The position numbers were made by a program, and so were the translations under genes. A stretch of 64,000 nucleotides of DNA. It comes from Spirochaetaceae bacterium (GTDB taxonomy: Bacteria; Spirochaetota; Spirochaetia; DSM-2461). Each line of letters starts with the position of its first letter. The first letter of the stretch is position 1. The DNA is taken from assembly GCA_965224705.1 (NCBI GenBank), contig OZ245056.1, positions 288,001 to 352,000 of the forward strand. Direction: 5' to 3'. Shown here piece after piece: positions 40,063 through 57,487 of the stretch. The notes beneath the pieces are model-generated. The model saw only the letters and a program-made list of their open reading frames with translations, was not told the DNA's origin and did not search any database.

Positions 40063-40067
40063 GGATA

Positions 40068-42119
40068 ATGAACACCCGCAATAAGACCATCCTTCATCTG
40101 CTGTCTGAGAATCAATCTCAGTACACAACGATTGATCAGATTGCGGAGGTAACCGGTGTGGGAACCAGAACAATACACAGGGATTTGACAGGTCTGGAAA
40201 GAAGTCTTGGGTTCAGGGGATTAAGACTTGAGCGGCGCCGGGGCTATGGAATTCGTCTCATTGATCCCCTTCCGGACAACCTTGCAGAAGACTTGATCCC
40301 GGCAGGAACATCATCTTACCTTAAGAATGATCAGCGTCCAATGCTGATACTTCTCTATTTGATCGTTTCAGGAGACTGGATAAAGCTTTCCGAACTTGCC
40401 CATGTGCTTTTTGTCAGTGACTCTACAATCAGTTCCGATGTCAATTCCCTGGAATCCCTGCTGCCTGATGGATTTGTGATAAACAGGCAAAAAGGAATCG
40501 GTATCCGTCTGATTGCCCGGGAAGATATCACCCGACTCCTCTTTTTATCCGCATTCCCTGTGGTGTTCCCCCATCATGTTATTTTTGGAGAGTCCGACAG
40601 TTCCATGGGTGAGGGACGATTGATCACAGCTTTCAAAGTTCGACATGGAAAAGAACGAATCAGGGACAGAATCAAGAGAACGGAATCCATTCTGGGTTAT
40701 CAATTCTCTCCATCGTATCAATGTCTGCTGTACAGCTATCTCTATCTGCTTTCAAGACGCCTGCCATTCGGTTGTTTTATCAAGGACAGAGTGAAATCCA
40801 ATCTTGATATTCCAGACCCCTTCAGAAAGGCTGCGAAGGCAATGATGGAAACAGACCTGACAGAGTACAGTCACTCTCCAGCAGTGGTATCCGCAGAACT
40901 CGAAGTGCTCGCCCGAATTATTGCATCGTGTGAAACATCCATTCCTCCAACCTCTTCCGTCGATGAATTCATGGGAAACCTGAAAACATCTATTGAAACG
41001 ATGCTTGAGAAATCTTTAAACAGACTGGAAGAGAAGGAAAAAATCTGGCTCCATGATGACAGGATCCTTCTTAATTATCTGCGAATGACCATTACTGCAG
41101 CCGCCTGCCGGATAGATCTTGGATTGTCATTCTGGAAAAAATCAGGGCTTGTCACTTATCCCCGTATTGTAGACTTACCGGAAGCCGATGTACTGACAGA
41201 CCAGTTTCTGACCGAGTTCGGCCGAATTCTTAATGAACCCGAACCAGAAATAGTCCGGCGGGAACTTCAAGAGGCATCTCTGGCTCTAGCAGCTCGCCTG
41301 GAAACCATCCGATCCCGGAGTTCCGGAGAACTCAGAGTTGGAATTTTTTGTTATGAGGGACTTGGCATGTCCAGCTACATACTTTCAATTGCCAGAGATG
41401 TTTTTCCTGCTGGAACCGTGTTCAAGACCATGTGGGAGCCTGATCTGGATGATAATCTGAAATCTGATGGATATCATCTTGTGATTTCCACCCATCCCCT
41501 CCATTCCTGGAAAACCCGGCAACTGATACTGAACGGAGATAACTCTCCAGAGGAAATCCGGCGGCAGCTCAAAGAATTTGTCCGGGAAATGGATTTTCAA
41601 CCGGCTGTTTTAAACAGAGATCGCAAAAAAACGGAGCTGTCTGGAAACATCCGCTCCCTATCGTCTGGTGATGAGAAATACTCGCTGAAGGATGTGATCT
41701 CTGTTATCAGCGGATTTTTTGTTGAGCTGGAGGTTCCGGGAGGAAATCTTATTTCCCAGGCCGCCTCAGCTCTGGACAATGGTGACTGTGATATCGAAAC
41801 ACTGATTCATGATTTTGATCGCCGGGAATCATTCGGGAGTCTGAAGTTTGAAGAGTTGAACATACGAATTCTTCACTGCCGGTCCAGAGGAATCCCGGAG
41901 CCCAGGGCTGGAGTGATTCAAACAGAGGGAAACGATAGTACAGTTCTTGTTATCGCAGCACCTCTTACCGCTGAACAGGCCCAGACTCATGCACTTTCTG
42001 AAATAGTTATCGCATTGACAGATAGTCCCGATTTCGCGGAGATCCTGGCAGGAGGGAGTAAATCGGATATTCAATCTCATCTGCTTACAATCTTTGGCCG
42101 GAAGAATAAGGAGGTTTAA
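40068..42119 (+). CDS. MtlR/BglG-like multi-domain transcriptional regulator (HTH, PRD-like, EIIB- and EIIA-like)
   Basis: Two N-terminal HTH units (VGTRTIHRDL, VSDSTISSD), EIIB-like CYEGLGMS, EIIA-like RE...LH; inside the mannitol operon. Confidence 0.75.
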   Translation: MNTRNKTILHLLSENQSQYTTIDQIAEVTGVGTRTIHRDLTGLERSLGFRGLRLERRRGYGIRLIDPLPDNLAEDLIPAGTSSYLKNDQRPMLILLYLIVSGDWIKLSELAHVLFVSDSTISSDVNSLESLLPDGFVINRQKGIGIRLIAREDITRLLFLSAFPVVFPHHVIFGESDSSMGEGRLITAFKVRHGKERIRDRIKRTESILGYQFSPSYQCLLYSYLYLLSRRLPFGCFIKDRVKSNLDIPDPFRKAAKAMMETDLTEYSHSPAVVSAELEVLARIIASCETSIPPTSSVDEFMGNLKTSIETMLEKSLNRLEEKEKIWLHDDRILLNYLRMTITAAACRIDLGLSFWKKSGLVTYPRIVDLPEADVLTDQFLTEFGRILNEPEPEIVRRELQEASLALAARLETIRSRSSGELRVGIFCYEGLGMSSYILSIARDVFPAGTVFKTMWEPDLDDNLKSDGYHLVISTHPLHSWKTRQLILNGDNSPEEIRRQLKEFVREMDFQPAVLNRDRKKTELSGNIRSLSSGDEKYSLKDVISVISGFFVELEVPGGNLISQAASALDNGDCDIETLIHDFDRRESFGSLKFEELNIRILHCRSRGIPEPRAGVIQTEGNDSTVLVIAAPLTAEQAQTHALSEIVIALTDSPDFAEILAGGSKSDIQSHLLTIFGRKNKEV

Positions 42120-43289
42120 ATGAAGACAGCAGTACAGTTTGGTGCCGGAAATATCGGCAGGGGATTTATTGGAAAACTACTTTCCAACTCAGGGTATTCC
42201 GTTATTTTTGCCGATATCAGCAAAACGTTGATACCTGAACTGAAAATAAGGGAAGAGTATGTTGTGGAAATTGTCGGCGAGGAACAGAGGGAAGAAAGAA
42301 TCTCTCCGGTAACGGGAATGTATTCCGACGATCCAGAACTGCTTGAAGCCATTGCCCATGCGGAAATAATTACAACGGCAGTCGGCCCCAATATCCTTGG
42401 GAATATCGCCCCTGTTATCGCGAAAGGTATTGAGGTACGGAAAAAAAATGGTAACAACTCATCTTTGAACATCATTGCCTGTGAAAACATGATCGGTGGG
42501 TCAACCATGCTGAAAAGAGAAGTGATTCAATACCTGTCTGAGGACACACAGAAATGGATGACTGACTGCACAGGATTCCCCGACTCAGCAGTCGACCGCA
42601 TCGTCCCACCGATGGATGAAACAAAGGACATTCTCAGAGTACGGGTTGAGGAGTTCTGCGAATGGATTGTAGACGAATCAGGTTTCATCGGCACAGTTTC
42701 TGAGATTGAGGGGATGCAGTTAAGCGACAATCTGGGTTCCTTTATCGAAAGAAAACTATTTACACTGAATACCGGTCATGCGATAACAGCATATCTTGGG
42801 GCTTTCAAAGGATATAAAACTATAGCAGAGAGTATTGCTGATCCACAAATACTCCCGGTGGTACACGGTGCCATGGTTGAAAGTGGTGAAGTACTGATTC
42901 GGCGATACAATTTTGAACGCTCCGCTCACATGGCCTACATTGACAAAATACTGGCACGTTTCCGCAATCCCTGGCTGAATGATAGAGTTGATCGTGTGGG
43001 GCGCCAACCCATACGGAAACTTGGTGCCAATGAACGATTTATCAAACCTTTGCGAGGTACCATTGAATATGGAACTTCCAGCAGGAATCTGATTACCGGT
43101 ACCGCTGCGGCCCTGCATTTCCAGAATGATGATGACGATGAAGCGGTGAGGCTCATGACAATGCTGAATTCAATGGACTTGAAACAGGCCCTGAAGGAAA
43201 TAACCTCTCTGGATTCGGAAAGCATTATTACAGCCATTGCATCAGCTTATAAGAGTTTGACTGATTCTGGAATTCCCCGGATCGTTTAA
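42120..43289 (+). CDS. mtlD: Mannitol-1-phosphate 5-dehydrogenase
   Basis: FGAGNIGRGFIG, IIACEN, AVDRIVP, ERKLFTLNTGHA, RVGRQPIRKL. Confidence 0.96.
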   Translation: MKTAVQFGAGNIGRGFIGKLLSNSGYSVIFADISKTLIPELKIREEYVVEIVGEEQREERISPVTGMYSDDPELLEAIAHAEIITTAVGPNILGNIAPVIAKGIEVRKKNGNNSSLNIIACENMIGGSTMLKREVIQYLSEDTQKWMTDCTGFPDSAVDRIVPPMDETKDILRVRVEEFCEWIVDESGFIGTVSEIEGMQLSDNLGSFIERKLFTLNTGHAITAYLGAFKGYKTIAESIADPQILPVVHGAMVESGEVLIRRYNFERSAHMAYIDKILARFRNPWLNDRVDRVGRQPIRKLGANERFIKPLRGTIEYGTSSRNLITGTAAALHFQNDDDDEAVRLMTMLNSMDLKQALKEITSLDSESIITAIASAYKSLTDSGIPRIV

Positions 43290-43291
43290 CA

Positions 43292-43366
43292 GGATGAAAA
43301 GACTGGATGCCAGTGTTTTCTTCCAGATGATACAAAACTCCCTGAATTCTGGTTGTACAATGGATA
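43292..43366 (+). repeat. 75-bp direct repeat, left boundary of the accessory island
   Basis: 72/75 identical to 53886-53960; contains hairpin GAAAAGACTGG-atg-CCAGTGTTTTC. Confidence 0.9.
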
Positions 43367-43774
43367 GCTAATTCAAAAACTCTCTATAAGATATCAGTTA
43401 GAGAAGGAAGGTTGCTGCCTGATGCGGCCTCAGCCAGATTCTCATTGAAAATGAAGCTTTTGCCAGACCTTTTACATGAAAAAACGCCTTCTCATGACCT
43501 CTGATGTAAAGCCGCCTTGGAAAACGAATCCTTAGAGATGGGAGTTGACCCGCTTCACGCTCCTTAAAAGCTGGAAGACAGTTCCTTGAATCGTAAGTAA
43601 TTAACACCGATACTCCAGAACCTCGGCGAAGAAATCCATGTACTCTCCTCTCTCCCCTGCACTACCGAAAAACAGTGATGGACCACCTCGTGCGTACTGC
43701 GGCGATTCTCCCTCCCCTGCACTGCGTGCTGCCAAAAAACAGGTTCTGCCTTCGTCTGCCGCGAAGCATGCAGC

Positions 43775-45809
43775 ATCGAGTAGGAGGCACCCTGCGAAAG
43801 CAGGGATGCCGTCCTCTCACAGAACCGTGCGTACGGGTCCGTACACGGCTCCTCATGCATGTGTTCATATTTCTTTCAGTCTCAGGCTGAATAAATAAAC
43901 TGCCCGAGTTCTTCAATGAAATAGCGATTGGGAAAAGCTCTATGCATAGCCGGACTCCTTGAAGTCGCCCAGATACCCTTATTGTTGATAATTCGATTGG
44001 CCGCATACTCTGATACTCCCCTTTTTAACAGGGTGCGTTTCAGATTTCGGGGCCTCTTGTGCTCATACACTATTCGGGATCTCAATCGCCTTCTGGCATG
44101 GGCTTCCACCCTTTGAAGCTGGCGCTTATCTTCGGTTATACCGTAATATCCACTCCAGCCCCGGTACCAGATATTCAGCTTTTCCACTGTAGCTTCAATA
44201 GACTGATTCGTTCGTCTGGGTATCAATTCACAAAGCCTATCATTGGCTCTGCTCATTGACATCGACGAAATCGTAATCATTCCGGCCACAATGGTCATAC
44301 CCAAAAACTTGATAACTTCGGCCTTTCCTGTTTTGCTCTTCTCCTCGTTGACAACGAGTTTCAGTTTCTTTTCAATGAAGTTTGAAATACTTCCCATCAC
44401 TCTATCCGCCGCCTTTTGGGACTTAACGAATATGTTGCAGTCATCAGCAAATCGACAAAACTCCAGTCCTCGTTTTTCCAGTTCCCTGTCTAACTCGTCC
44501 AGAATCACATTGCTGAGCAATGGACTTAATGGACTACCCTGTGTCGTTCCTACAAAGGTATTTTCTTTCTGTCCATTCACCATCACCCCGCTCCGCAGAG
44601 TCAGGCCGGTCAAGCGCAGAATCCGGTTGTCGATTTTATGGACCGTTCTCAGCTGTCTGATGATTCTGTCGTGGCTGACCCTATCAAAGAACTTCGAGAG
44701 GTCGATATCCACCACAATATCCTTGCCGCTGCTGACTATCGACTTAGCCTTTTCAATAGCCTGTTTCTGACTTCGTCCAGGACGAAAGCCAAAACTGCTG
44801 TCTGAGAAGGTGGGGTCGATAATGGGTTCGAGCAGAAATTTGATGGATGCCTGGACCACTCTGTCACGCACACACGGCACGCCCAGAAGTCTCACTCCTC
44901 CTCCCGGTTTCGGGATCTCCACTCGTCTGACCGGTTGAGGTTTGTAGCTCCAGTCTTTCAGCTCCGCTGAGAGTTCCCGGATTTCCTGCTCAAGATTGGC
45001 TTTGTAATCCTCTACAGTGATCTCGTCGATGCCTGATGACCCCCTGTTCTTACTCACCTCTCTAAAGCCTCGCCTCAATACCGGTGGACTGCATAATTCC
45101 TCAAAAAGTCTCATGCGGTCCACTTTGAACAGTTCTCCTTGTTCCAATTTTCTCTCCTTCGGTCACAGACGAGTATTTCTGCGTGTTCCACATCTCTTTT
45201 CCTTGTTTACGTCAGGAATGGGTGGAACACTCCCTAATGGCTGGTTTCGTCTGATCTGATACTCATCGTTCCAACAGAACGTTTGCATGTTCCCCCCTTC
45301 ACCTTTAGCATCCTTGTCCCTTGGTTCCTGTTTTATCCTCACATATGTTGCCATATCGTCACAGGCAGAAATCTTTACGGCTACTATGGGTTCTTCTGAC
45401 TGCCGGTGGAAGATAACCCTGCATCCCTGCACGGCTTAGGAAATCTTATGGCGCTGTTCCACAGTTTCCATTCCACAGGCCCTCCCCGGGTAAGACCAAT
45501 CTCCATTTCATATCCGCCTGCCTTCTGCACAATTATGGGTTTACGTAAAGGATATGGGACTTCGATAGCCGAAGGTATCTCATCCCCCATAACTGCCTTT
45601 CAAAGGTTCACATTCGTTCAAGCGAATATTTTGACTTAGACTTCCTTCAGATTCCTCATTGGGAAATACAATCTCCATCTGGTGAGCAGGCATACTCTCA
45701 ATGCGTTGTCTATCTTTCTTCGGACACCCTTGTCTTTGTCTACAAATTCCCTCCTTTCAGGGCTTTGTCGGGATTTTCACCCGCTGGATATTGGTCATGC
45801 CGGGCACAC
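43775..45809 (-). mobile_element. Group II intron, IIC-like, apparently full length (2035 nt)
   Basis: 5' end GTGTGCCCGGCATG at 45809; domain V GAGCCGTGTACGGACCCGTACGCACGGTTC; domain VI ending CTACTCGAT at 43775; intact IEP. Confidence 0.92.
43882..45147 (-). CDS. ltrA: Group II intron reverse transcriptase/maturase (no endonuclease domain)
   Basis: RRVEIPKPGGGVRLLGVP..RDR, DLSKFFD, GTTQGSPLSPLLSN, FCRFADDCNIF, FLG, maturase GWSGYY. Confidence 0.95.
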   Translation of the reverse strand: MEQGELFKVDRMRLFEELCSPPVLRRGFREVSKNRGSSGIDEITVEDYKANLEQEIRELSAELKDWSYKPQPVRRVEIPKPGGGVRLLGVPCVRDRVVQASIKFLLEPIIDPTFSDSSFGFRPGRSQKQAIEKAKSIVSSGKDIVVDIDLSKFFDRVSHDRIIRQLRTVHKIDNRILRLTGLTLRSGVMVNGQKENTFVGTTQGSPLSPLLSNVILDELDRELEKRGLEFCRFADDCNIFVKSQKAADRVMGSISNFIEKKLKLVVNEEKSKTGKAEVIKFLGMTIVAGMITISSMSMSRANDRLCELIPRRTNQSIEATVEKLNIWYRGWSGYYGITEDKRQLQRVEAHARRRLRSRIVYEHKRPRNLKRTLLKRGVSEYAANRIINNKGIWATSRSPAMHRAFPNRYFIEELGQFIYSA

Positions 45810-45898
45810 TTCGCGACGTCGATTGCTCGAACGGCCGTCAGCCTCAGAGCGGGTAAGGTCAAATCCCACGTATTGACAAGTTTCGCCGCTTAAACTTA

Positions 45899-45927
45899 TT
45901 GACAGAACCTCCTTCCCTGGTTATGAT
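45899..45927 (+). promoter_or_regulatory. Sigma70 promoter of the ABC importer operon
   Basis: TTGACA-N17-TATGAT about 40 nt upstream of GGAGG RBS and ATG 45966. Confidence 0.65.
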
Positions 45928-45965
45928 TCCAGACTATATTAATTTGGTACACGTGGAGGTGTATT

Positions 45966-47312
45966 ATGAAAAAAAAGTCCCTTTTTCTTTTTGTTCTGAG
46001 TATTCTCGCGGTATCCCTGGCGTTCGGCGGCGGCGGCCAGGACGAGTCGGAAGCATCGGCCCCGGCACCAACCAGCTTTGATTGGATGAACTATGAAGGT
46101 TCCAGCATCACATTCATGGTTCCCGAGCATCCAATCACCAACGGTGTACGGGAAATTCTGGCGGAGTTTGAGTCCCAGACCGGCATTGAGGTGGCCATCA
46201 ATGCGATGGCTGAAGACCTGTACTTCGATAGAATGAACGTTGCGCTTCGCACCGAAGGCAATGTGGATGTCTACCTGGTGCCCATGGATGGAGACTCCTA
46301 CATTCAAAAAAACACCGGACTTGTCCGGTCACTTTCGCCCTACCTCGACGACCCGATAATGACGGCGTCGGACTACGATTTCCCTGATTTTCCATCAACC
46401 ATCATGGATTTGGTACACTACAGCGAGGGCTACTTTGCTATTCCCGCCTCACTCGAAACGTATATTCTTATGTATAATAAAGAAATAATCGAAAAGTACC
46501 TTGACGGCAAGGTTCCCGCCACCATGGATGAACTCATCAATGCGGCCAATACCATACAGAGCCAGGCAGATGGGGAAGTTTCCGGTGCTGTAATGAGGGG
46601 AATCCGTTCCGACACCCTTAAAGACACCATAACAGGCATCGTTTACAATGCAGTGGGTGACGGGGGATACAATAATGCAGCCGAAATGTACATGAGCTCT
46701 CCCGGCAACTTTTCAACGGTAAGGCTGACGGATCCCGGAATTATCCGCGGCATCAATCGATACGCTCAGCTTATGAAGGCTGGACCTTCGAATATCCAAT
46801 CCATGGATTGGCCTGACGCCGCAAGAGCGTTTGAACTGGGAAAGGCTGGATTCTTTGTCGATGCCAACCTATTTGCGCCTGGATTTGAACAGGGGGCAAT
46901 GGCTGGTAAGGTAGGCTATTCCATACTTCCCATCGACAACTCCGAGGGAAAATCCTACTCCGGTTTTTGGGGCTGGGGCTATGGCATAGCCGAAAACTCC
47001 AAGAATCCAGAGGCCTCCTGGCTGTTTATCCAATGGCTTTCCAACAAAACCAATGATGTGAAAATTGCGAAGTTCCATGGAAGTCCGGCAAGAAATTCAA
47101 CCTGGACCAGGACCGAATTCACTCAAACCATGCCGGTTGACTACATTGAAGCATCAAAGGAGCAGATGGCTTCATCCAGGAGTTCTGTTATCAAGAACGA
47201 AAAGGAAAAAGAGTTCTATCTGATTATAGTTGATGCCATACAGGAGATTTACGGGGGAAAATCCCCGGAACAGGCGGTTCGCGAGGCTCAGGAAAAAGCC
47301 AGGAATTTATAG
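45966..47312 (+). CDS. Sugar ABC transporter substrate-binding protein (CUT1 family)
   Basis: Signal peptide ending FGGGGQ; EFESQTGIEV, LMYNKE, PATMDEL, WGYGI..NSKNPEASW.FIQW. Confidence 0.9.
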   Translation: MKKKSLFLFVLSILAVSLAFGGGGQDESEASAPAPTSFDWMNYEGSSITFMVPEHPITNGVREILAEFESQTGIEVAINAMAEDLYFDRMNVALRTEGNVDVYLVPMDGDSYIQKNTGLVRSLSPYLDDPIMTASDYDFPDFPSTIMDLVHYSEGYFAIPASLETYILMYNKEIIEKYLDGKVPATMDELINAANTIQSQADGEVSGAVMRGIRSDTLKDTITGIVYNAVGDGGYNNAAEMYMSSPGNFSTVRLTDPGIIRGINRYAQLMKAGPSNIQSMDWPDAARAFELGKAGFFVDANLFAPGFEQGAMAGKVGYSILPIDNSEGKSYSGFWGWGYGIAENSKNPEASWLFIQWLSNKTNDVKIAKFHGSPARNSTWTRTEFTQTMPVDYIEASKEQMASSRSSVIKNEKEKEFYLIIVDAIQEIYGGKSPEQAVREAQEKARNL

Positions 47313-47342
47313 CTTTCGGATGAAATAGGGGGGATAAAGCCA

Positions 47343-48212
47343 ATGCGGACTGGAAGAATAGATTTTATCTCAAAAGGCTTTATTCTTCCCGCTATTTCAG
47401 TTTTAGTGATTGTTTCTCTGTACCCGGCAGTATTCGGCGTTGTAACCTCCCTTTTCGACTGGCATTGGGGGGATCAGGCTGTTTTTGTCGGATTCAAAAA
47501 CTACTTTTCCCTGTTTACCAGCAAAGATTTCTACACCGTCCTCTATAACACAGGCCGCTTTGCCGCCGCCGCCGCCCTTATCGAAATATCGCTTGGTTAT
47601 TATCTGGCGGTACAGGTGGACAAACTGAAAATAAACACAGGGCTCATCAAGGGCTTACTTATGATGCCTCTGATGATATCGGGAATTATCACGGCCCTGA
47701 TGTCCAAGGTCATCCTTGATCCGTACATCGGTGTCATACCCCAATTATTCTCCGGTCTTGGAATCAATGACTTCCCCTTTTTCGGCAGTCCCAAAACGGC
47801 GATGCCCACCATCATTGCGGTGGATACATGGTGGCAAACAGCCTTTATCTTCATCATCATTCTGGCGGGACTTCAGGGCATACCGATTTCAACAATCGAG
47901 GCATCGCAGATTGAAGGGGCCAGCGATTTTCAGGTTTTCTGGAGAATCAAATTCCCCATACTGAAGAACCTGTTGATAACAGTGATCATTTTCAGGCTCA
48001 TCGACATATTAAAAATTTTCGACCTCGTCTTCGGTACGACCGGGGGGGGGCCCAATCTGAGTACAGAGGTTTTTCAGACATTTGCCTATAGAACGGCCTA
48101 CAAATTTCGCGACATAGGCATGTCCATGACCATTATTGTGGTCTTTTCATGCATCATGCTGATTCTATGCATTCTATTCCACAAGCTCAGGGATCAGGAC
48201 GACATTCAGTGA
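47343..48212 (+). CDS. Sugar ABC transporter permease
   Basis: FVGFKNY, EAA loop EASQIEGAS, TGGGP. Confidence 0.92.
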   Translation: MRTGRIDFISKGFILPAISVLVIVSLYPAVFGVVTSLFDWHWGDQAVFVGFKNYFSLFTSKDFYTVLYNTGRFAAAAALIEISLGYYLAVQVDKLKINTGLIKGLLMMPLMISGIITALMSKVILDPYIGVIPQLFSGLGINDFPFFGSPKTAMPTIIAVDTWWQTAFIFIIILAGLQGIPISTIEASQIEGASDFQVFWRIKFPILKNLLITVIIFRLIDILKIFDLVFGTTGGGPNLSTEVFQTFAYRTAYKFRDIGMSMTIIVVFSCIMLILCILFHKLRDQDDIQ

Positions 48213-49048
48213 AGAGAAATTTCCTTTCTAGAAGCTGGCCCGTTGTGTTCGTCGGCATTGTACTGATACTGACAATATTTCCCATACTATGGGTTTTTCT
48301 GCTTTCGCTGACCGAAAACGCGCTCGACGTCCTGGCAGGTGAAAAAGTTAAAGCCATTATTACATTCAAGAATTACAGGGATCTCTGGCAGAATTCCCTG
48401 TTCCGGTCATCGTTTATCAACTCAATTTTTGTCACACTCATTGCGACGGTGCTATCCCTCGGCATAGCCCTGCCCTGCGCCTACTATCTGACGATTCAAC
48501 GGCGCAGGAAAAAGCAGTCCAGGGGAATACTGCTGTTCAATCTCTGGCTTCTTCTAACCTACATGCTTCCTGAATTCTTGTTTATTATACCAATGTACAT
48601 TGTCTACCAGAAAGTTGGTCTGTACGATACCTACTTTGGGCTGGCACTGCTCTACCAGATACATGTACTGCCGTTTTCAATCTGGATGTTAAGCAATTTT
48701 TTTCAGAGTGACATACCAGTAAGCATTGCGGAGGCGGCCAGCATTGACGGTGCCAGACACCGCACAATCCTTTTCTCCATCTACACACCGCTGGCCAGAT
48801 CCGGTATTGCAGCGTTGAGCATCCTGAGTGCGATTTGGATCTGGAATGAGCTGGCGATTGCCATCGGACTCACCTTTGCGAATGCGCAGACCATCACGGT
48901 GGGCGTGGCGTCATTTAGAGGCTATGCCTCCGTGAACTATGGGGCGATGACGGCCGCATCCATTGTGTCCATCGTTCCTATGCTGATAGGCGCCGTTTTC
49001 GTGCAAAAACACATACTTCGGGGCCTGTCGGCCGGTGCGATTAAATAA
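48209..49048 (+). CDS. Sugar ABC transporter permease
   Basis: GTG start overlapping the previous stop; EAASIDGA, WNE, GLSAGAIK. Confidence 0.92.
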   Translation: MKRNFLSRSWPVVFVGIVLILTIFPILWVFLLSLTENALDVLAGEKVKAIITFKNYRDLWQNSLFRSSFINSIFVTLIATVLSLGIALPCAYYLTIQRRRKKQSRGILLFNLWLLLTYMLPEFLFIIPMYIVYQKVGLYDTYFGLALLYQIHVLPFSIWMLSNFFQSDIPVSIAEAASIDGARHRTILFSIYTPLARSGIAALSILSAIWIWNELAIAIGLTFANAQTITVGVASFRGYASVNYGAMTAASIVSIVPMLIGAVFVQKHILRGLSAGAIK

Positions 49049-49061
49049 GTAAGGAGAACTT

Positions 49062-50372
49062 ATGTTTGAGAACATGTCAATGAAGGAACTGCAGACATTT
49101 GCCTCGCAGTTTTTGACCGGGGGCGTCTCGTCGAATGCGAGAATTAATCCCTACACCGGAATTCCCATGTACCTGTCCAGGGCTGAGGGCGCATATATAT
49201 GGGATCACAGCGGCAAAAAATACATCGACTATTTTATGGGTCACGGAGCATGTCTGCTGGGACATGGCCGACCGGAAATCAGCCGGGCCGTCACTGAAGC
49301 CATGCACAGGGGCTGGACGGCCGAGTTTGATTCCCAGGCCAATGTGGACCTGGCCGAACGACTTTGCCGGATTATTCCGTCGGCGGAACAGATACGTTTT
49401 ACCTCGTCAGGATCGGAATCCACGGCCCTCTGCATGCGCATCGCCCGTGCCTTCACAGGAAAAGACAAGATTATTCGCATTGACGGGCATTTTCACGGAA
49501 CCAACGACTATGTTCTAACCAACTGGCTGGCCGGTGATACGGATCGGAATAACGACGGCACGCAGAGGTCGGAATTTGTCTATTCATCCAGGGGAATACC
49601 CCGGGCGATCGAAGACACAATGATTGTCATTCCCTGGCATAACGTCGATGTTCTGGAGAGAGTTATTTCCGAGGAAAAGGATGATATCGCGGCGATAATT
49701 ATGGTTCCTATTGACTACAACAACGGCTGCCTTGTCCCCGCTAAGGAATACCTGCATAAGGTTAACGACATCGCACACCGAAGCGGTCTGCTGGTCATAT
49801 ACGATGAGATTCTTTCCTGCTTCCGCACCGGCCTGTCCTGCGCACAGGGCTATTTCGATGTGACACCGGATCTATGTGCAATAGGGAAGGTTCTCTCCAA
49901 CGGTGTACCCCTCAGTGTCGTCGCCGGGAAGAAGGAGGTCATGTCCTGCATCCTCGACAATCCTCCAGTGGCATCCGGCGGGACCTACTCGGGAAATGCT
50001 CTGGGAATCGCGGCCGCGCTGGCGACTCTCGAGATCCTCTCCCAACCCGATTTTTATCCCTCGCTCAGTTCCCTCACTCAATACTTCTGCGAGGGCATGA
50101 AGGAACTCTTTGCCAAATACGGAATTCAAGTGCAGATTCCCTATCTCGGCAGCAATTTCTTTATCTATTTCGGACCTGATAAGGAAGTCCGGAGCTACAG
50201 CGATTTTGCCCTTATTGATACATCATATGCCAGAAAGTTTTTTAGATCCTGCATCGATCGCGGGATTTATTTTCACACGGATCTTACTGTCTCAGCGGCC
50301 CATACGAGGGACGATATAGACCACACCCTGGAGGTATTTGAAGAAATCGTTCAGGACATCGGCACTCCCTGA
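49062..50372 (+). CDS. Class III PLP aminotransferase (glutamate-1-semialdehyde aminomutase-like, probably not HemL)
   Basis: GGVSSNAR, GKKYIDY, SGSE, GHFHG, DEILSCFR, IGKVLSNG, GGTYSGN; co-transcribed with a sugar importer. Confidence 0.85.
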   Translation: MFENMSMKELQTFASQFLTGGVSSNARINPYTGIPMYLSRAEGAYIWDHSGKKYIDYFMGHGACLLGHGRPEISRAVTEAMHRGWTAEFDSQANVDLAERLCRIIPSAEQIRFTSSGSESTALCMRIARAFTGKDKIIRIDGHFHGTNDYVLTNWLAGDTDRNNDGTQRSEFVYSSRGIPRAIEDTMIVIPWHNVDVLERVISEEKDDIAAIIMVPIDYNNGCLVPAKEYLHKVNDIAHRSGLLVIYDEILSCFRTGLSCAQGYFDVTPDLCAIGKVLSNGVPLSVVAGKKEVMSCILDNPPVASGGTYSGNALGIAAALATLEILSQPDFYPSLSSLTQYFCEGMKELFAKYGIQVQIPYLGSNFFIYFGPDKEVRSYSDFALIDTSYARKFFRSCIDRGIYFHTDLTVSAAHTRDDIDHTLEVFEEIVQDIGTP

Positions 50373-50401
50373 ATTCGGGTGAACAACCCGATGGAAGGAC
50401 T

Positions 50402-51424
50402 TCAGGCGTCAATCGCCATCGGCCTGCCGGTATCCGAGGATCTATAGGCGGCCTCAATGATTTTCATATTGACCAGCCCCTCAAGGCCCCCGGGCAAGGG
50501 CCTGCGGCCGTTTTCGATCGCATTGATAAATTCCCGCATCTGGGCACTGTACATCTCCTGACCGCAGTGTTCGTTTCGTTCAGGAAAACTCCCTTCGGTT
50601 CGCAGGGCCGTCTCCGGGCCCGATCCCTCCGGTCCGCTGACGCTTACAAAGGTGGGATAAAGGCTGGCATATCCGGTTGTTCCATAGATCCTCGCAGCCG
50701 CTTCCGGTCCCTGCATATATGGATGCCACCAGCCGCTTTCGACTATGGAGCAGACACCGTTATCCCATTCAATGAGGAGCAGGGCACTGTCTTCTACTTC
50801 CATCTGCTTGACGGCATTCCTAACTTTGGCAAAAACCTGGACCGGTGCGGGATCACCCATCAGGTATCTTAGGGTATCGACGGCATGTATACCCATGTCA
50901 GCCAGAGCCCCCCCCCAGGCAAGCTTCTTTCTGGTAAACCAGCCTCCAGGCCCCCAATTGACATGAATGCCGTATCCGGAGGCCTTAAAAACATCTCCGA
51001 TTTTCCCGGATCTGATTTCGTCTGCCAGGAAGTTTGCCTCACCATCGAATCTCCAGACATGACCTGTCATCAGAGCCAGATTCTTTTTTTCCGCCAGATT
51101 CAGCATCTCTTCGGCCTGAGCCGCCGAGCAGGCCATGGGTTTTTCGACAAAAACATGCCGACCAGTTTCTAATGCTTCCAATGTCTGCGGATGGTGATGG
51201 ACGTTGGGTGTGGAAAGAACAACGAAATCGACATCAGAATCCCTGAGCATCTGCGAGAAATCTGTATAGGCCTTCCCGGAAACCCTGTGTTTCACTGCGA
51301 AGGATTCAGCGTTGGCCAGCGTGGGGCTGGCCACGGAGCGGAGTTCCACGCTGCGGCAGGACTTCAGCCCCTCCGCATGATAGTGGGAGATAAAGCCTGA
51401 ACCTGAAAACCCTGCCTTTAGCAT
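50402..51424 (-). CDS. Gfo/Idh/MocA family oxidoreductase
   Basis: GSGFIS, TPNVHH, VFVEKP, GGALADMGIH. Confidence 0.92.
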   Translation of the reverse strand: MLKAGFSGSGFISHYHAEGLKSCRSVELRSVASPTLANAESFAVKHRVSGKAYTDFSQMLRDSDVDFVVLSTPNVHHHPQTLEALETGRHVFVEKPMACSAAQAEEMLNLAEKKNLALMTGHVWRFDGEANFLADEIRSGKIGDVFKASGYGIHVNWGPGGWFTRKKLAWGGALADMGIHAVDTLRYLMGDPAPVQVFAKVRNAVKQMEVEDSALLLIEWDNGVCSIVESGWWHPYMQGPEAAARIYGTTGYASLYPTFVSVSGPEGSGPETALRTEGSFPERNEHCGQEMYSAQMREFINAIENGRRPLPGGLEGLVNMKIIEAAYRSSDTGRPMAIDA

Positions 51425-51425
51425 T

Positions 51426-52691
51426 TCAATCTTTCCCGAGGCTATTCTTATTCGCCATAACCTTCTTCACCGCCTCATAAATCTGTTCAATGTCGCCCGA
51501 TGTTCCCAGGAGGACGCGGTGGGGCAGGGTTACAGACCGATTTCTGTAGGAATCTTCAGCCACGGGAAGTTTAAATCTACCGGGATTCAGTGCGTCCATG
51601 TGAGCCTTATTCAAATGATGCCGTTTTTTTGTAAGCGGACGGTAAAGGGTGCAATCGTTTAGGGGCTGATAGCAGGGGGCTGCACCAATGCCCAGTTCAG
51701 CGCTCAGGGCGGATCGGAACTGGGCCGCGGGTAATCCGGTTTCCTCCGGACTTATTCTAAAGGCATAGTTGAAGTAGGCCTTTTTCGTTTCTCTGGAATC
51801 CTCCCGCATGATGTGAATTCCCGGCAGCTCCTTCAGCATGGAGTCCAAGAGATGCGCGTTTTTCTCCCGAGTTTTATTCTGCTCGCCCAGTCTGCCCAGC
51901 TGCGCAAGCAGAACCGATGCCTGAAACTCCGTGATGCGATAGTTGCCGCTCTGAATGAAATCCCCTTCCAGTCCGTAGTCACCGGAACTCTTGTCGACCG
52001 CCATGTTGGTCGGTCTCCTTCCGCAGTTTCTCAGCGCGTCAAGTTTGAACCAGAGATCCTGATCCGCAGTGGTGAGGATACCTCCCTCGCCGGCGGTAAG
52101 AACCTTTGAAAGCTGCAGGCTGAAGCTGCCTATGTCTCCGAGACTACCCACCGACCGGTTGCGCCATTCCGCACCGTGCTGGTGAGCCGCATCCTCAATC
52201 ACATAGAGGCCATGCTTTTTGGCGATGCTTCCAATCGCATCCATATCGGCGATGCTCCCATACAGGTGCACTGGAATAATCGCCCTGGTCCGTTCGGTCA
52301 GATTCGCTTCAACGGCCCGGGGATCAACACACCAGGTATCGTCCTCAACATCCGTCAGTATGGGAACGGCATTAACGTCGACAACGGCGGCCGCGGTCGC
52401 CTGCCATGTGATTCCCGGTACAATAACCTCGTCTCCCACGCCGATATTCAGGGCTTCCAGAGCAAGCTGCAGGGAGACAGTGCCGTTGGAGGTCAGCAGG
52501 GAATACTTGCTCCCAATGACCTGGTTCCAGGCATTGATGAAGGCCCTTTCGCGAGGACCGTTGTAAGACCAGATACCGCTTTCCAGGACTTCAATAAGGC
52601 CGCGTTTTTCCTCCTCCCCCCATACCGGCCAGCCTGGCCATGGATTTTTTTCTGTGTTTCGAATCGAATTACCACCGTTTATTGCCAGCAT
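51426..52691 (-). CDS. DegT/DnrJ/EryC1/StrS aminotransferase, BtrR/StsC (inosose aminotransferase)-like
   Basis: LAINGG, GDEVIVPGITWQATA, PVHLYG, EDAAH, SFSLQLSKVLTAGEGG, NYRITEFQA. Confidence 0.88.
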   Translation of the reverse strand: MLAINGGNSIRNTEKNPWPGWPVWGEEEKRGLIEVLESGIWSYNGPRERAFINAWNQVIGSKYSLLTSNGTVSLQLALEALNIGVGDEVIVPGITWQATAAAVVDVNAVPILTDVEDDTWCVDPRAVEANLTERTRAIIPVHLYGSIADMDAIGSIAKKHGLYVIEDAAHQHGAEWRNRSVGSLGDIGSFSLQLSKVLTAGEGGILTTADQDLWFKLDALRNCGRRPTNMAVDKSSGDYGLEGDFIQSGNYRITEFQASVLLAQLGRLGEQNKTREKNAHLLDSMLKELPGIHIMREDSRETKKAYFNYAFRISPEETGLPAAQFRSALSAELGIGAAPCYQPLNDCTLYRPLTKKRHHLNKAHMDALNPGRFKLPVAEDSYRNRSVTLPHRVLLGTSGDIEQIYEAVKKVMANKNSLGKD

Positions 52692-52727
52692 CAGGTTACT
52701 CCTTTTTAGCTTCCGTCGAAGATTTAT

Positions 52728-53741
52728 TCAGCCGTCGTTTCCAATCAGTCTGCGGAATTTTTTAATGAGATTCGCAGGCTCAATAACGGCCTCGTCTATA
52801 ATCGAATACCAGAGGCGGCTGTCGCGTACGAAGTCTGGCAGCGTCGCAAGACAGGCGCTGATTTCGTCATAATCCGTCCCGATTTTTTCGGGCCGATACT
52901 CCACCCCGGCGTCATTCAAAACGTCAAGAATTTTTTCGGGCTGATTATCCTGAAGTATGGCCATGAGCAGTATACCCAGCGCGACGAGTTCCCCGTGAAC
53001 AAAATGCCTTTTGGTTAAGTACTCCATGTTGTACGCAAAAAAATGCTCCGATCCTTCTTCCATCCGAGCATTGCCCCAGTCCGCGCACAGGTCGTTAATC
53101 GTGCTGAATGCCTCAATCAGGGCGGTAATTCCTTCCTCACTCACCGACCGAATTTCCCGACTCAATGAAACTATTTTCGTGAACACTTCCCATGCCGATT
53201 CTGCGATTCGGCTGTCGTGAACATCTTTTTCTCTGTCGGCCGCCAGTCTCCAGTCAAACTGGGCTATTTGGCAGGAGAGAATGTCGCTTATCCCGGCTCT
53301 GTTCAGTCTCGCAGGAGCACTCTGAATAATGGGACAGCAGACGATTACCTGCCCCGGCGCACAGCTGCCGATGTATCGGACGATGCTGCCTGTACGGACT
53401 GCGATTGCGGGAGTCACCATTGCATCTGCCGAAGCGATAGTCGGTATTGCGATGACCGGAAGTTTGTGAATCCATCCCATGTATTTGGCACAGTCCAGCG
53501 AGGCACCTCCGCCGATTCCGACCACTGCGTCAACATTTTCCAGAGGCTGAAGAGACCGCAGATATTGAATTCCTGTTTCTTTGACATAGCTGAGTTGGGC
53601 CGGATGTATTCGAGCATGCTCGTTCACCACCTTCCAGGGAATTTCCTGCGTGAAAACGACCGTCCGGTCCCAGTTGATATGAGATATCTGCGCACCTAAG
53701 TCATGGCCGATAGCCACCCTGGCAAAAGTACTTTCCATCAT
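52728..53741 (-). CDS. Glycerol-1-phosphate dehydrogenase-like / DHQS-Fe-ADH superfamily enzyme
   Basis: GIGGGASLDCAK, PTIASAD, EGSEHFF, HGELV metal-ligand motifs. Confidence 0.8.
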   Translation of the reverse strand: MMESTFARVAIGHDLGAQISHINWDRTVVFTQEIPWKVVNEHARIHPAQLSYVKETGIQYLRSLQPLENVDAVVGIGGGASLDCAKYMGWIHKLPVIAIPTIASADAMVTPAIAVRTGSIVRYIGSCAPGQVIVCCPIIQSAPARLNRAGISDILSCQIAQFDWRLAADREKDVHDSRIAESAWEVFTKIVSLSREIRSVSEEGITALIEAFSTINDLCADWGNARMEEGSEHFFAYNMEYLTKRHFVHGELVALGILLMAILQDNQPEKILDVLNDAGVEYRPEKIGTDYDEISACLATLPDFVRDSRLWYSIIDEAVIEPANLIKKFRRLIGNDG

Positions 53742-53885
53742 GCGCTTCCTTTCCTACAGGATTCTAGACAACCTGACCAGATATATCAATACTTATTTTG
53801 ATTAAGGTTATGATTATCGCGATAAATACCAGCACTCACCGGTCATCCCGGCATTTCCAGCATCGATATTGTGATACGCTGTCCT

Positions 53886-53960
53886 GGATGAAAAGACTGG
53901 ATGCCAGTGTTTTCTTCCGAATGATACAAAACTTCCTGAATTCTGGTTGTACAATGGATA
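53886..53960 (+). repeat. 75-bp direct repeat, right boundary of the accessory island
   Basis: 72/75 identical to 43292-43366. Confidence 0.9.
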
Positions 53961-54161: not shown

Positions 54162-54671
54162 ATGAGAATTGTTGCTGTGAATTTCATCTTTGTATTTGTT
54201 GCTTTTGGTGTTTCGGGGCAATCGAATGATTTATTGGACAATTTCCTGGATGCGGAAAAAGCTGATATTGGAACCTCCATGCTGATAATTGCTCAGGCCG
54301 CTGGTGAGTTAGAGCCAACTGCAACACCTTTTGATGGATATCAATGGGCAGCCAGACAGGGTTTTGGCCGATTTATGAAGAGTAGGAACTCCAGCGATCC
54401 TATTACACTTGGTGTGTTCTACCTGGCATTATTTCATTCTTTGAAAGTAAAGACTGGAACCATGTTCGGTCTCTACAGAATACCGCGTTATGCGGTGATG
54501 GGAGCAAAGTATCTTGGTTATGTTGATCCTTCAAGAGCATATTACACACGTCAAATGCTGCCCTACGAAGTTCTGACAGGTATCACATATGTTCAGGACG
54601 ATATTGCCTTAAGAAGAATTAAAACGAAACAGATTAAAGCTGTCTCAGGTAATAAAAAAGATGAAATTTAG
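54162..54671 (+). CDS. Exported hypothetical protein, possibly SLH-like
   Basis: Signal peptide; SSDPITLGVFYLAL loosely resembles an S-layer-homology motif. Confidence 0.55.
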   Translation: MRIVAVNFIFVFVAFGVSGQSNDLLDNFLDAEKADIGTSMLIIAQAAGELEPTATPFDGYQWAARQGFGRFMKSRNSSDPITLGVFYLALFHSLKVKTGTMFGLYRIPRYAVMGAKYLGYVDPSRAYYTRQMLPYEVLTGITYVQDDIALRRIKTKQIKAVSGNKKDEI

Positions 54672-54683
54672 AGATATACCTGC

Positions 54684-55997
54684 ATGAAAACAATCAAACT
54701 CATATCAATTATTATTGTTTTAACAATCCCTGTCGGATCCATTGCTGCCAGCCATATGTGGGGAGTGGATGTCAACTTGCTCAGCTTGAAATTCCCCTCA
54801 TTTTCTTCCTTAACGACGACCATGGACCAGTCCAGTAAAGTAACCTTCTGGTTCAATGGAATGCTGAGTGATACACTGAAATTCGAAATAGATGGGGGGG
54901 GCGGTTTTGATTTAGGGTGGAATTTCACATTTGATGGAGATGGCCGATACAGTTCTGCAACTCAAGATTTTAGTGTTTATCCAATTTTGAACAAGGCATA
55001 TATTCATAGAAAAGGCACACTTCTTGAATATGAAATTGGAAGATACATGGTGAGTGATCCAGGCAATCTGATTCTGAATACTCCCCTTGATGGTATTGAA
55101 TTCACAATTAAGCCAGGTTCGCAGGCATTCAAAGCAGGTGTTGGATATACTGGATTCCTGTTCAACCATTCTACTTCTATTTCCATGACTGCAAATGACT
55201 TGAAGCGGTTAGAGGATAAAAAGGCATTGGCTGCACAGCGGTTCATTGAGTATCTTTCCTGGACCATGCCATCGACTCTCTGGCTGCAGCCTGAACTCTT
55301 CTTTCTTGCCATGCAGGATGTTGCAGCCGATGATGATCTTTCAAGGAGTGAATCAGAAAGATACCATTCCATGTATCTTGAATTCAGATCACGTGGATTC
55401 CTCGGCCAGTATTTTATATATGAATTGGCTTTAGCAGGTCAATTAGGATTTTACGGGCCTGCAACCACGGTTCTGGCCGGTTCAGGTAAGGCAAAGGTTT
55501 CATGGCTGCCGAATCCGAAGATTCAGGTTGGCATAGAGGCAATATTATCCACCGGTGATGATTCAGGGAGGAAGAGTTATGAGTTTGCAGGTGTCAATGA
55601 AGATACTGGAACCATGCTGTATCAGTATCTACCTGTGTCATCTGTCTCATCGCGTGGTTATGTCCTCGATTTTGGATTGGGAAATGTCATTTCAGCAGCG
55701 GCGTATTTCAAACACAGTCTTTCGAAGGGCTTCAACTGGGAATTGCGTACAACAACTTTTCTACGGCCTGTAGAAGGGGGTGTTGTATCAACAGCCATGG
55801 TGAATCGTGATGCTGAAGGGAGCTTTATTGCACAGGAGGCCTTGATTGGATTATCAGGAAATCCCAATGCGAATTTCAGATGGAGTGTCAAAGTCGGCGC
55901 ATTGTTTTATGGTGACCTGATTGACCTGCATAGTGTGTTTAAACAGGTTTTACCAGTAATCCCGCGTGTCGGCTTTGATCTTAATTTCAGTTTGTGA
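54684..55997 (+). CDS. Outer membrane beta-barrel protein
   Basis: Signal peptide, many amphipathic strands, EIGRY...LDGIEF porin-like segment, C-terminal FDLNFSL. Confidence 0.65.
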   Translation: MKTIKLISIIIVLTIPVGSIAASHMWGVDVNLLSLKFPSFSSLTTTMDQSSKVTFWFNGMLSDTLKFEIDGGGGFDLGWNFTFDGDGRYSSATQDFSVYPILNKAYIHRKGTLLEYEIGRYMVSDPGNLILNTPLDGIEFTIKPGSQAFKAGVGYTGFLFNHSTSISMTANDLKRLEDKKALAAQRFIEYLSWTMPSTLWLQPELFFLAMQDVAADDDLSRSESERYHSMYLEFRSRGFLGQYFIYELALAGQLGFYGPATTVLAGSGKAKVSWLPNPKIQVGIEAILSTGDDSGRKSYEFAGVNEDTGTMLYQYLPVSSVSSRGYVLDFGLGNVISAAAYFKHSLSKGFNWELRTTTFLRPVEGGVVSTAMVNRDAEGSFIAQEALIGLSGNPNANFRWSVKVGALFYGDLIDLHSVFKQVLPVIPRVGFDLNFSL

Positions 55998-56013
55998 TTT
56001 TTAGGAGAGCATT

Positions 56014-56658
56014 ATGAAAAAGCTAATGAGTTTGATCTTATTGGGAAGTCTTTCGGTTGGGCTCTGGGCTGTGGATGCAACAATCCTTAGCCTTTCTGGA
56101 CCATCCGTAGAGATCAAAGAACCTGGCGGAACCTGGCAGCCTGCCAGTCAGGGCCAGGTTGTTTCATCAGCATCAATGATCGCTACAGGCTTCAATTCCA
56201 AAGTTAGTATATCGGTTGGCGGGATGGATTTAAGTTTGTCGTCTCTGACTCGTGTGAGTATTGATGCTCTCATGGAGGATAATGATGTTATAACCACATC
56301 TTTGTCTCTAAGTACTGGCAGATTGAGAGCCAGCTCTCAACCTGTGGAACGCAAAACCCGCCGAAAAATCGACTTCAAGGTGAATACGCCAGTTGCAACG
56401 GCGGCGGTGCGTGGAACAGAGTTCTTGTTGAGTACCAATAAATTGGAAACAATTGAAGGCATGGTTGAACTGCGGCAGGGCAGCCGTGTTGTTCAGGCCC
56501 CTGCAGGTTCAAAATCCTGGGTAGCACCTGATGCTCCACCAACTGCACCCATTGAGAATATTGGTGAATTGATTTCTCCTGAGATAACGGCTGCAGAAGA
56601 AGTTGAGGAAATTGAAACAATTGTTACAACCGGCGATGTTCGAATCATTTTGGAGTAG
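56014..56658 (+). CDS. Exported FecR-domain protein
   Basis: Signal peptide; IATGFNS and FKVNTPVATAAVRGTEF FecR motifs. Confidence 0.8.
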   Translation: MKKLMSLILLGSLSVGLWAVDATILSLSGPSVEIKEPGGTWQPASQGQVVSSASMIATGFNSKVSISVGGMDLSLSSLTRVSIDALMEDNDVITTSLSLSTGRLRASSQPVERKTRRKIDFKVNTPVATAAVRGTEFLLSTNKLETIEGMVELRQGSRVVQAPAGSKSWVAPDAPPTAPIENIGELISPEITAAEEVEEIETIVTTGDVRIILE

Positions 56659-56671
56659 TGAGGTGGTAAAG

Positions 56672-57487
56672 ATGAAACCAAAAAAAGAAACGGTAATGAT
56701 AATAACTTTTTCGATCTTGACAGGTGTTATGGCTCTATCCTGCTTCGGGGCGTTCGGTACCCACGGACAAATCGAAATAGTCATCCCGAATGCAGATGCT
56801 GCACGATCTCTTGAAGGTTATGACGGTACAGGAGAAGTTTCCATTAAGGGAACGGTCGTATACGGTAATGCCGGACAGGGCTATACAGCCAGAGAGTTTT
56901 ACAGTGGATCGACTCTGACTGAATCAAATAACTCATTTGTACTCACCAATATTCCTACAGGCACGTATATTTTTGGAATCCTGATACAGGATAGTAATGA
57001 TATTGTTATAGGATTAGCTATAAAACAAGTTGTCATTTCTGCCGGCATCAATAATGTCCCAATCAGAGTAGGCCCTGGCATTGAATCTGCCCGAATTGGT
57101 TCCATTGACTTTGGGACAGATCCAATCCAGTTTATGGAGAATAATAAAGATAAATACTCGGTAACTTTTGGTGAAGATAGGATATCCTTTATTGATAAAA
57201 CAGCCAATAGTACCAACCATCCCGATAACAGTGATGTGGAAGTGTCTTTTATTCCCATATTCTCGAAAAACAATACTCATGAAATCGTGTCAGCAAAGGC
57301 ATTTCTGATTGATGAGTCTGGAAACGTGAGTGAAGTTGATTCAGCAGAATATAGTAGCGATGGAAAAGTCACAGCTACTGTAACAAAGGGTAAAGCCGGA
57401 GTGCGATTTAAGCTTTACGATTCTCTGGATTCAACTGCTATACCCTATGTCTACGATGTGTATTTGAAAGATATAGGTTCAAATTAG
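56672..57487 (+). CDS. Hypothetical lipoprotein, beta-rich
   Basis: GAGGTG RBS, lipobox-like ALSC, Ig-like TNIPTGTY segment. Confidence 0.6.
   Translation: MKPKKETVMIITFSILTGVMALSCFGAFGTHGQIEIVIPNADAARSLEGYDGTGEVSIKGTVVYGNAGQGYTAREFYSGSTLTESNNSFVLTNIPTGTYIFGILIQDSNDIVIGLAIKQVVISAGINNVPIRVGPGIESARIGSIDFGTDPIQFMENNKDKYSVTFGEDRISFIDKTANSTNHPDNSDVEVSFIPIFSKNNTHEIVSAKAFLIDESGNVSEVDSAEYSSDGKVTATVTKGKAGVRFKLYDSLDSTAIPYVYDVYLKDIGSN

Follow-up and report, generated by a model that had tools for sequence, protein, structure and literature searches.

Several described systems resemble, each in part, a seven-gene block carried by a Spirochaetaceae bacterium (GCA_965224705.1, contig OZ245056.1, positions 288,001-352,000; this whole 64,000-nt stretch is called the window below). 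The DegT-family aminotransferase of the block finds its best sequence and fold matches in BtrR and RbmB (PDB 2c7t, 5w71, 5w70), with which it shares the pyridoxal 5′-phosphate (PLP) residues, W92, Q189 and R221 and the lack of a nucleotide-sugar context. Unlike them, it belongs to a sister lineage outside the clade of 2-deoxy-scyllo-inosose (DOI) synthase-linked and StsC-like enzymes, has catabolic neighbours and stands beside no cyclase or glycosyltransferase. The rhizopine mos/moc genes of Sinorhizobium meliloti draw on the same transporter, Gfo/Idh/MocA and DegT families, a likeness at family level; the block differs in having no IolE-type dehydratase or regulator, and MosB is biosynthetic. 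By chemistry alone, the block can also be likened to GenD2/GenS2, which carry out amination at C-3′′ (PMC4340712, in the part available), and to KanJ/KanK, which deaminate C-2′ and reduce it, giving a precedent for the conversion of a C2 amine through a ketone to a hydroxyl (PMC6838515, in the part available). Those enzymes, in contrast, act on assembled antibiotics, and KanJ is a dioxygenase rather than a transaminase. The csnREFGHK operon of Streptomyces and the GH2_16 enzyme CsxA of Amycolatopsis orientalis are comparable because orthologues and kin of the DegT enzyme stand beside CsxA-type glycoside hydrolases of family 2 (GH2), or beside ROK, ATP-binding cassette (ABC), GH4 and kinase genes. 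Unlike csnREFGHK, the block lacks a glycosidase, a kinase and a ROK regulator, and the available part of the published description of this chitosan-oligomer operon includes no aminotransferase (PMC6097792). HemL is the nearest family and fold of the second aminotransferase of the block, a class III enzyme that keeps the catalytic Lys276 and falls under all HemL cut-offs, with 29% identity to the HemL that the genome encodes separately beside hemB.

The original prediction, made from the sequence of the window, described two convergent operons, and these were borne out: the seven open reading frames (ORFs) have the predicted coordinates (Table 1), the stop codons of the operons lie 29 bp apart, all seven gene families score above their Pfam cut-offs and the motifs quoted for the DegT enzyme are present. 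The block also proved to hold an importer and no glycosyltransferase, nucleotidyltransferase, exporter or resistance gene, as predicted; a regulator and an ABC ATPase are likewise missing within the seven genes. Searches of the genome covered one 3.0-Mb contig, 95% complete, and some of the public sequencing runs that contain the stretch are labelled mollusc metagenome.

The most plausible single reading, offered tentatively from gene content and homology, is that the block imports free glucosamine, transaminates it to a keto sugar and then reduces the product. The ABC system would import the monomer with an ATPase encoded elsewhere. The DegT enzyme would work in the direction opposite to BtrR, passing the ring amino group to a 2-oxo acid; the nitrogen would thereby end up in an amino acid and leave behind a keto sugar, glucosone in the case of glucosamine. 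The Gfo/Idh/MocA oxidoreductase would reduce this ketone to glucose or mannose, the protein resembling glycerol-1-phosphate dehydrogenase (G1PDH) serving as a second or alternative reductase. In the least certain step, the HemL-like enzyme may act on a second amine or on an open-chain 2-amino-aldehyde, the motif on which HemL acts.

This reading draws on the neighbourhoods of DegT orthologues (54-63% identity), found at 63 loci by scanning one genome per species with six peptide patterns. The loci are mostly kin, several end at contig ends, and neighbours were annotated in one representative per cluster. Sixty loci are from Bacteroidota (mostly marine Flavobacteriaceae), one is from Melioribacteraceae and two are from spirochaetes. 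A GH2 gene is present in 57 of the 63, a MocA orthologue in 56, a sodium:solute symporter in 52, SusC in 45 and SusD in 40. The GH2 proteins are of the CsxA type, with 486 bits to CsxA exo-β-glucosaminidase versus 106 to mannosidases, and every row covering the position keeps the amine-binding Glu394 (56/56), the Ser-Asp motif (56/56) and Glu541 (57/57), roles that are taken from the available parts of two papers (PMC6566704, PMC12243196). The spirochaete locus L001 has a ROK regulator, a PIG-L deacetylase, an ABC system, a BadF kinase and GH4; L079 has a GH84 N-acetylglucosaminidase, PIG-L, an ABC system and a second DegT gene; and more distant DegT kin (37-38%) also stand beside GH4 and BadF. 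Neither a cyclase nor IolE occurs among the annotated neighbours, and one family 4 glycosyltransferase (GT4) is encoded on the opposite strand in L045. SIS-domain and PfkB-HAD genes that resemble heptose enzymes lie beside GH2-DegT-MocA at L060:5557-7113, L103:4834-7309 and L022:13650-15554. Together with BNR-repeat proteins (20/63 loci) and phosphatases, they hint at breakdown of the lipopolysaccharide core or the lipid A backbone.

Since the orthologous loci are uptake-and-breakdown clusters, the reverse direction proposed by the original prediction, biosynthesis-like chemistry run as catabolism, is likely, and on comparative evidence it is much better supported than any single substrate. 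The prediction had left the substrate as an aminocyclitol or an amino sugar. The second option gains and aminoglycoside fragments lose, because the orthologues travel with glucosaminidases, deacetylases and GH4/GH84 hydrolases, which point to a substrate of the glucosamine type. The marks of a chitosan-oligomer locus, a glucosaminidase or GH4 plus a kinase, are found in the orthologous loci and are missing from the block. It is very improbable that the block is biosynthetic, importing inositol to build an inosamine or a streptamine-like signal or defence compound. Inositol dehydrogenase (IolG) and MosB do suffice for scyllo-inosamine according to the available part of one report (PMC6668481), which makes them a further precedent for interconverting amine, ketone and hydroxyl, and two dehydrogenases with two aminotransferases would be the count for a diaminocyclitol. 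Nevertheless, the block has no exporter, cyclase or tailoring gene, the orthologues lie in SusC/SusD-type uptake loci, and the MocA enzyme scores 144 bits against the IolG model, far below the cut-off of 355.

Comparison of the DegT enzyme with known structures upheld the prediction that it is nearer to the inosose aminotransferases than to the nucleotide-sugar enzymes: a PDB search returned RbmB at 317 and BtrR at 302 bits (39-42% identity), followed by AHBA synthase at 186 bits and then the nucleotide-sugar enzymes. Its AlphaFold model (pLDDT 92.5) gives the same ranking by structure, with TM scores of 0.88-0.93 to these two (0.93 to RbmB), and the PLP lysine and DegT fold are present. Two other assignments were rejected. 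As a nucleoside diphosphate (NDP)-sugar aminotransferase (ArnB, PseC, WbpE or perosamine synthase) it reaches at best 191 bits versus a cut-off of 423 and is distant in the tree, and membership of the kanosamine pathway (NtdABC) is contradicted by 92 bits to NtdA and by the lack of a HAD gene in the block.

In the trees, BtrR, RbmB and StsC were represented by proxies picked by motif or neighbourhood (P0390, P0408, L181, L184, L219). A quick IQ-TREE analysis of 49 selected rows gave support of 98 to the proxy biosynthetic clade, 93-94 to a separate clade holding the window enzyme and 96 to the joint group, a topology with which FastTree (155 rows) agrees. The predicted distance from NDP-sugar enzymes stood in the phylogeny, but the enzyme falls outside the biosynthetic inosose clade. 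A Sodalis plasmid enzyme adjoining a DOI synthase scores 487 bits to RbmB and 305 to BtrR, so the window enzyme represents a third branch, and the tree suggests that the antibiotic enzymes are placed among largely catabolic relatives. Among the relatives seen along the way, L181:7989-17254 is the Sodalis praecaptivus plasmid with the DOI synthase and the RbmB-type aminotransferase, and L219:4915-11443 is a Mycobacterium plasmid with a streptidine-like set that includes a scyllo-inosamine-4-phosphate amidinotransferase. P0390 is a natural PIG-L-DegT fusion. P0367, the top-scoring representative (866 aa), was considered as a DegT-class III fusion and is instead a tandem DegT-DegT fusion. A Rhizobium match inspected for mos context lies outside any mos locus.

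Import and deamination of an aminocyclitol (scyllo-inosamine, streptamine or 2-deoxystreptamine) or of an aminoglycoside fragment, with two amines removed by two aminotransferases and two dehydrogenases, is unlikely, although the DegT enzyme itself offers arguments for it. The enzyme count suits a diamine, and the score of 302 bits to BtrR is on par with the 305 bits of the RbmB orthologue linked to DOI synthase. BtrR residues were mapped through the PDB-search alignment, with roles from the available part of PMC6429434 and with Tyr324 omitted, its number not matching the PDB sequence. The window enzyme keeps W92, D163, S187, Q189, K192, E198 and R221. Against an aminocyclitol stand its place outside the 98%-supported biosynthetic clade, the company that orthologues keep with glucosaminidases, and changes at S34, Q166, D219 and Y304. 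At D219 it has Cys, a position at which almost every row of the biosynthetic clade carries Asp or Asn and the StsC-like enzyme keeps Asp. The block has no DOI synthase or other biosynthetic gene, and one gene of the dehydroquinate (DHQ) synthase family lies elsewhere in the genome. At 33 conserved or pocket positions chosen by the analysts, the window enzyme is identical to the CsxA-linked enzymes of L003, L060 and L103, and it is 59% identical to that of L005, which makes a shared substrate class likely.

The metabolism of the genome bears on the same choice. IolE, NagB and GH18 gave no match in the window genome, IolD (228 versus 715 bits) and NagA gave none over their cut-offs, and tblastn found no orthologue of CsxA, PIG-L or BadF; the SIS-domain matches are one two-domain protein of 617 aa and three weak ones. 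The genome does not fit inositol or rhizopine catabolism, and the failure to find IolE, NagA and NagB weakens an inosamine as substrate: with no IolE, an inosose formed here could not be carried further by any known step, as glucose or mannose could. Among five other carriers tested, none has IolE over the cut-off; in carrier G513 an IolE-like protein matches in part (260 bits), a point in favour of an aminocyclitol, and G742 has matches below the cut-off. The congener G009, which lacks the block, has IolE over the cut-off at G009:C1:2087485-2088360, and the window genome has none. On the glucosamine reading, the block would confer amino-sugar use on a genome whose searches turned up neither NagA nor NagB.

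Several observations weigh against glucosamine, the foremost being that NagB is over the cut-off in all five carriers tested, where a second route for plain glucosamine would be redundant; this is the main argument against the plain sugar and for a modified one, which phosphatases or phosphodiesterases in 41 of the 63 loci would also fit. The block has no glucosaminidase, so its substrate is borrowed from orthologues, whose loci, mostly from related Flavobacteriaceae and retrieved with six peptide patterns, are not independent. No chitinase or endo-chitosanase family occurs among their annotated neighbours, and no SBP orthologue occurs in any of the 63 at E≤1e-20. The MocA enzyme has only weak relatives in the PDB, the best at 110 bits (DgpA), and enzymes acting at C3 are among them. 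Both other genomes that carry the class III enzyme, G479 and G695 (89% and 92% complete), have no close DegT.

A 3-amino or 2,3-diamino hexose, of the kanosamine type or like the diaminoglucose of some lipid A, accounts for some of this but is itself doubtful. Chemistry like that of GenS2/GenD2, which act at C-3′′, would run in reverse at C3 and leave glucose or glucosamine. Such a substrate would explain the DegT-MocA pair in NagB-positive carriers as well as the phosphatases and BNR proteins, and the window, L002 and L079 each have two aminotransferases side by side. On the other side, the DegT enzyme has only 92 bits to NtdA and 130 to WbpE, no NagB was detected in the window genome to complete the route, and the link to lipid A depends on general chemical considerations and on neighbours that vary among loci.

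The MocA enzyme is the conserved partner of DegT, the best matches among its orthologues in the loci having 45-50% identity, and in this respect the co-occurrence expected by the original prediction was found (56/63 loci). The full set of seven was not found together elsewhere and is seen solely in the source organism and near-identical strains. The prediction had tied the G1PDH-like protein to the sugar-phosphate cyclases; it is no cyclase, scoring 30 bits to AroB and 29 to a cyclase-like protein of L219. In that StsC-like locus, a gene labelled 'iron-containing dehydrogenase' was considered as a relative and is unrelated. The G1PDH-like protein falls below the EgsA cut-off. Aligned to 5fb3 it shows D153, H233, H249 and a GGG loop, the three residues being invariant in 36 homologues; Asp/His/His is taken to be the metal site and GGG the cofactor loop of G1PDH-type enzymes. 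Its gene directly precedes DegT in L073 and L080. Two of the 401 class genomes have it, and the other carrier, G513, has a close DegT on a different contig. Matching of contig sizes between match lists (sizes ≥5 kb, 200 offsets as control) indirectly suggested three more DegT-G1PDH pairs where 0.19 were expected and no offset reached three. The enzyme is likely a second reductase.

PDB relatives of the solute-binding protein (SBP) are weak (≤59 bits) and include a sorbitol-annotated binder, a point for an aminocyclitol. Across 371 genomes of the class, its nearest relatives reach 31-33% identity; they stand next to unrelated genes, to two-component systems or to an MttB-family protein and are uninformative on the ligand, and an Atlas search found generic SBP clusters only.

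The class III protein is not the HemL of the cell, in line with the original prediction: the true HemL scores 539 bits against TIGR00713 and the class III protein 340. The proposed likeness to GenB failed. The nearest fold is glutamate-1-semialdehyde aminomutase (GSAM), HemL matches in the PDB at 251 bits and the C-6′ aminotransferases 7lld and 7lm0 at 106 and 99, and GenB-type enzymes are absent among profile matches at E≤1e-40. This remoteness from C-6′ aminotransferases counts further against an aminocyclitol. Lys276 is invariant in 50 homologues, the subfamily is conserved, and the protein was found in three of the 401 class genomes. The orthologue of G479, like the window gene, stands directly after an ABC system, and that of G695 stands before an FGGY kinase. 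No relative of the class III protein came up in a metagenome scan, a haloarchaeal plasmid class III gene beside DegT was discarded as an orthologue at only 29% identity, and plasmid searches with the four enzymes found no close orthologue of any. In different spirochaete-class genomes, a pair of small Amidohydro_2 genes (L165:3130-4781, L167:2363-3929) stands beside a class III orthologue in one and a DegT relative of 46% identity in another.

The operons may be two unrelated modules, the ABC system and class III enzyme serving one amine and the DegT enzyme and reductases serving an amino sugar that enters through another carrier. This is improbable, though G479 has the class III orthologue right after an ABC system in a genome with no close DegT, class III, G1PDH-like and SBP orthologues are found in none of the 63 loci at E≤1e-20, and a search made with no control found only short AT-rich matches between the two promoters, none a convincing shared operator. 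Set against it, both operons arrived between one pair of repeats and share a raised GC content at third codon positions (GC3), no transporter is encoded in the enzyme operon, and the two aminotransferases seem to share a contig in two database entries: contigs of equal size (9974 and 11521 bp) appear in both match lists, an indirect sign of two pairs where 0.2 were expected and 1 of 200 offsets did as well. Class III-G1PDH pairs by the same matching numbered zero.

The block is one island, inserted as a single piece. Direct repeats of 75 bp flank it, 96% identical with 33 bp exact, and these are the only two copies in the genome. The closest congener, G009, has an empty site: roughly 300 bp separate mtlD from a 169-aa gene, with a single copy of the 75-bp sequence, and the flanking proteins are 88-90% identical to those of the window genome; DegT, class III, G1PDH-like and SBP queries had no match in G009 at the thresholds used. 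The bracketing repeat and this empty site are two signs that the grouping of seven genes is not due to chance. A close DegT is missing from all 13 congeners, which makes gain of the island more probable than loss, and none was found in samples of 60 other relatives, 400 genomes of the phylum and 300 others in the phylum of genome G747. GC3 is 0.56-0.61 in all seven genes and 0.35-0.53 in the 27 remaining long ORFs of the window (intron ORF excluded); genome-wide, the values of the seven are only at the 82nd-90th percentile. An independent DNA run, X3, joins both operons on one contig of 6477 bp. That run comes from a related strain with an intron-free allele (joint 43773-45809), so the group II intron is a later passenger and lies outside the pathway; two further near-full copies (97-98% identical) and fragments occur elsewhere in the genome. 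There is no integrase or transposase inside the island. An element of about 120 bp (43366-43484), of which the genome holds more than 15 diverged copies, begins exactly at the end of the left repeat and may have contributed to the insertion.

Table 1. Coordinates in the window of the island, its genes and associated features
Feature	Coordinates	Strand	Support or remark
Left copy of 75-bp direct repeat	43292..43366		directly past mtlD stop
Group II intron with reverse transcriptase/maturase (ORF 43882-45147)	43773..45813	-	TIGR04416 355 bits; Rfam RF00029, RF02001
Sigma-70-like promoter, transporter operon	45899..45927	+	consensus match only, 11/12
Carbohydrate-type ABC solute-binding protein (SBP), 448 aa	45966..47312	+	PF01547
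ABC permease 1, MalF/UgpA type	47343..48212	+	PF00528; UgpA model 81 bits, below cut-off
ABC permease 2, MalG/UgpE type	48149..49048	+	PF00528
HemL-like class III aminotransferase, uncharacterised subfamily	49062..50372	+	TIGR00713 340 bits vs cut-off 527
Gfo/Idh/MocA oxidoreductase, conserved DegT partner	50402..51424	-	orthologue in 56/63 loci
DegT-family PLP aminotransferase, sister lineage of BtrR/RbmB/StsC-type	51426..52691	-	RbmB 317, BtrR 302 bits; trees
G1PDH-like metal-dependent polyol dehydrogenase	52728..53741	-	PF13685; EgsA model 133 bits vs cut-off 413
Sigma-70-like promoter, enzyme operon	53761..53789	-	consensus match only, 10/12
Right copy of 75-bp direct repeat	53886..53960		96% identical to left copy

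The promoter scan returned 9 sites versus 13 in shuffled sequence, and the two promoters named are distinguished by position and match quality alone. Contigs from RNA libraries of two runs start at 45958-45959, a weak hint of the transporter-operon promoter. RNA-library contigs of run X5 cover parts of all seven genes, although transcription cannot be concluded from contigs; all three RNA runs belong to one study, and the absence of X5 cover over flanking genes is not counted as evidence.

The native locus that received the island (38311-43289) encodes enzyme I of the phosphotransferase system (PTS), a large helix-turn-helix (HTH) regulator and a mannitol dehydrogenase-family protein. On the other side, 54162-57487 holds four conserved genes, three with no Pfam match and one for a FecR-domain protein, the first of the four being shared by 12 of the 14 genomes in the genus. 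Further along, at 60700-60786, a Lon-like protease ORF on the minus strand opens with a five-residue unit in about six repeats.

Much of the organic nitrogen in the sea is held in glucosamine and related amino sugars, for which the textbook route is phosphorylation followed by NagB. A route by transaminase and reductase, if true, would hand nitrogen directly to an amino acid with no ATP spent, and the island would be a stripped-down case of it, with an importer and four enzymes only and no glycosidase. The literature searched in full text, a coverage that leaves out most subscription papers, held no description of such a catabolic route. A broader alternative, rather unlikely as a whole, is that a catabolic sister family of the aminoglycoside aminotransferases provides a horizontally spread, kinase-free and NagB-independent route to amino-sugar nitrogen, extended in the present, host-associated spirochaete by the HemL-like and G1PDH-like enzymes to a diamino sugar or diaminocyclitol; so extended, it would also be a natural path for degrading the building blocks of aminoglycosides. 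Databases label the DegT orthologues as 2-deoxy-scyllo-inosose aminotransferases, which invites false calls of aminoglycoside clusters, and a catabolic role for the family, if true, would correct this frequent annotation.

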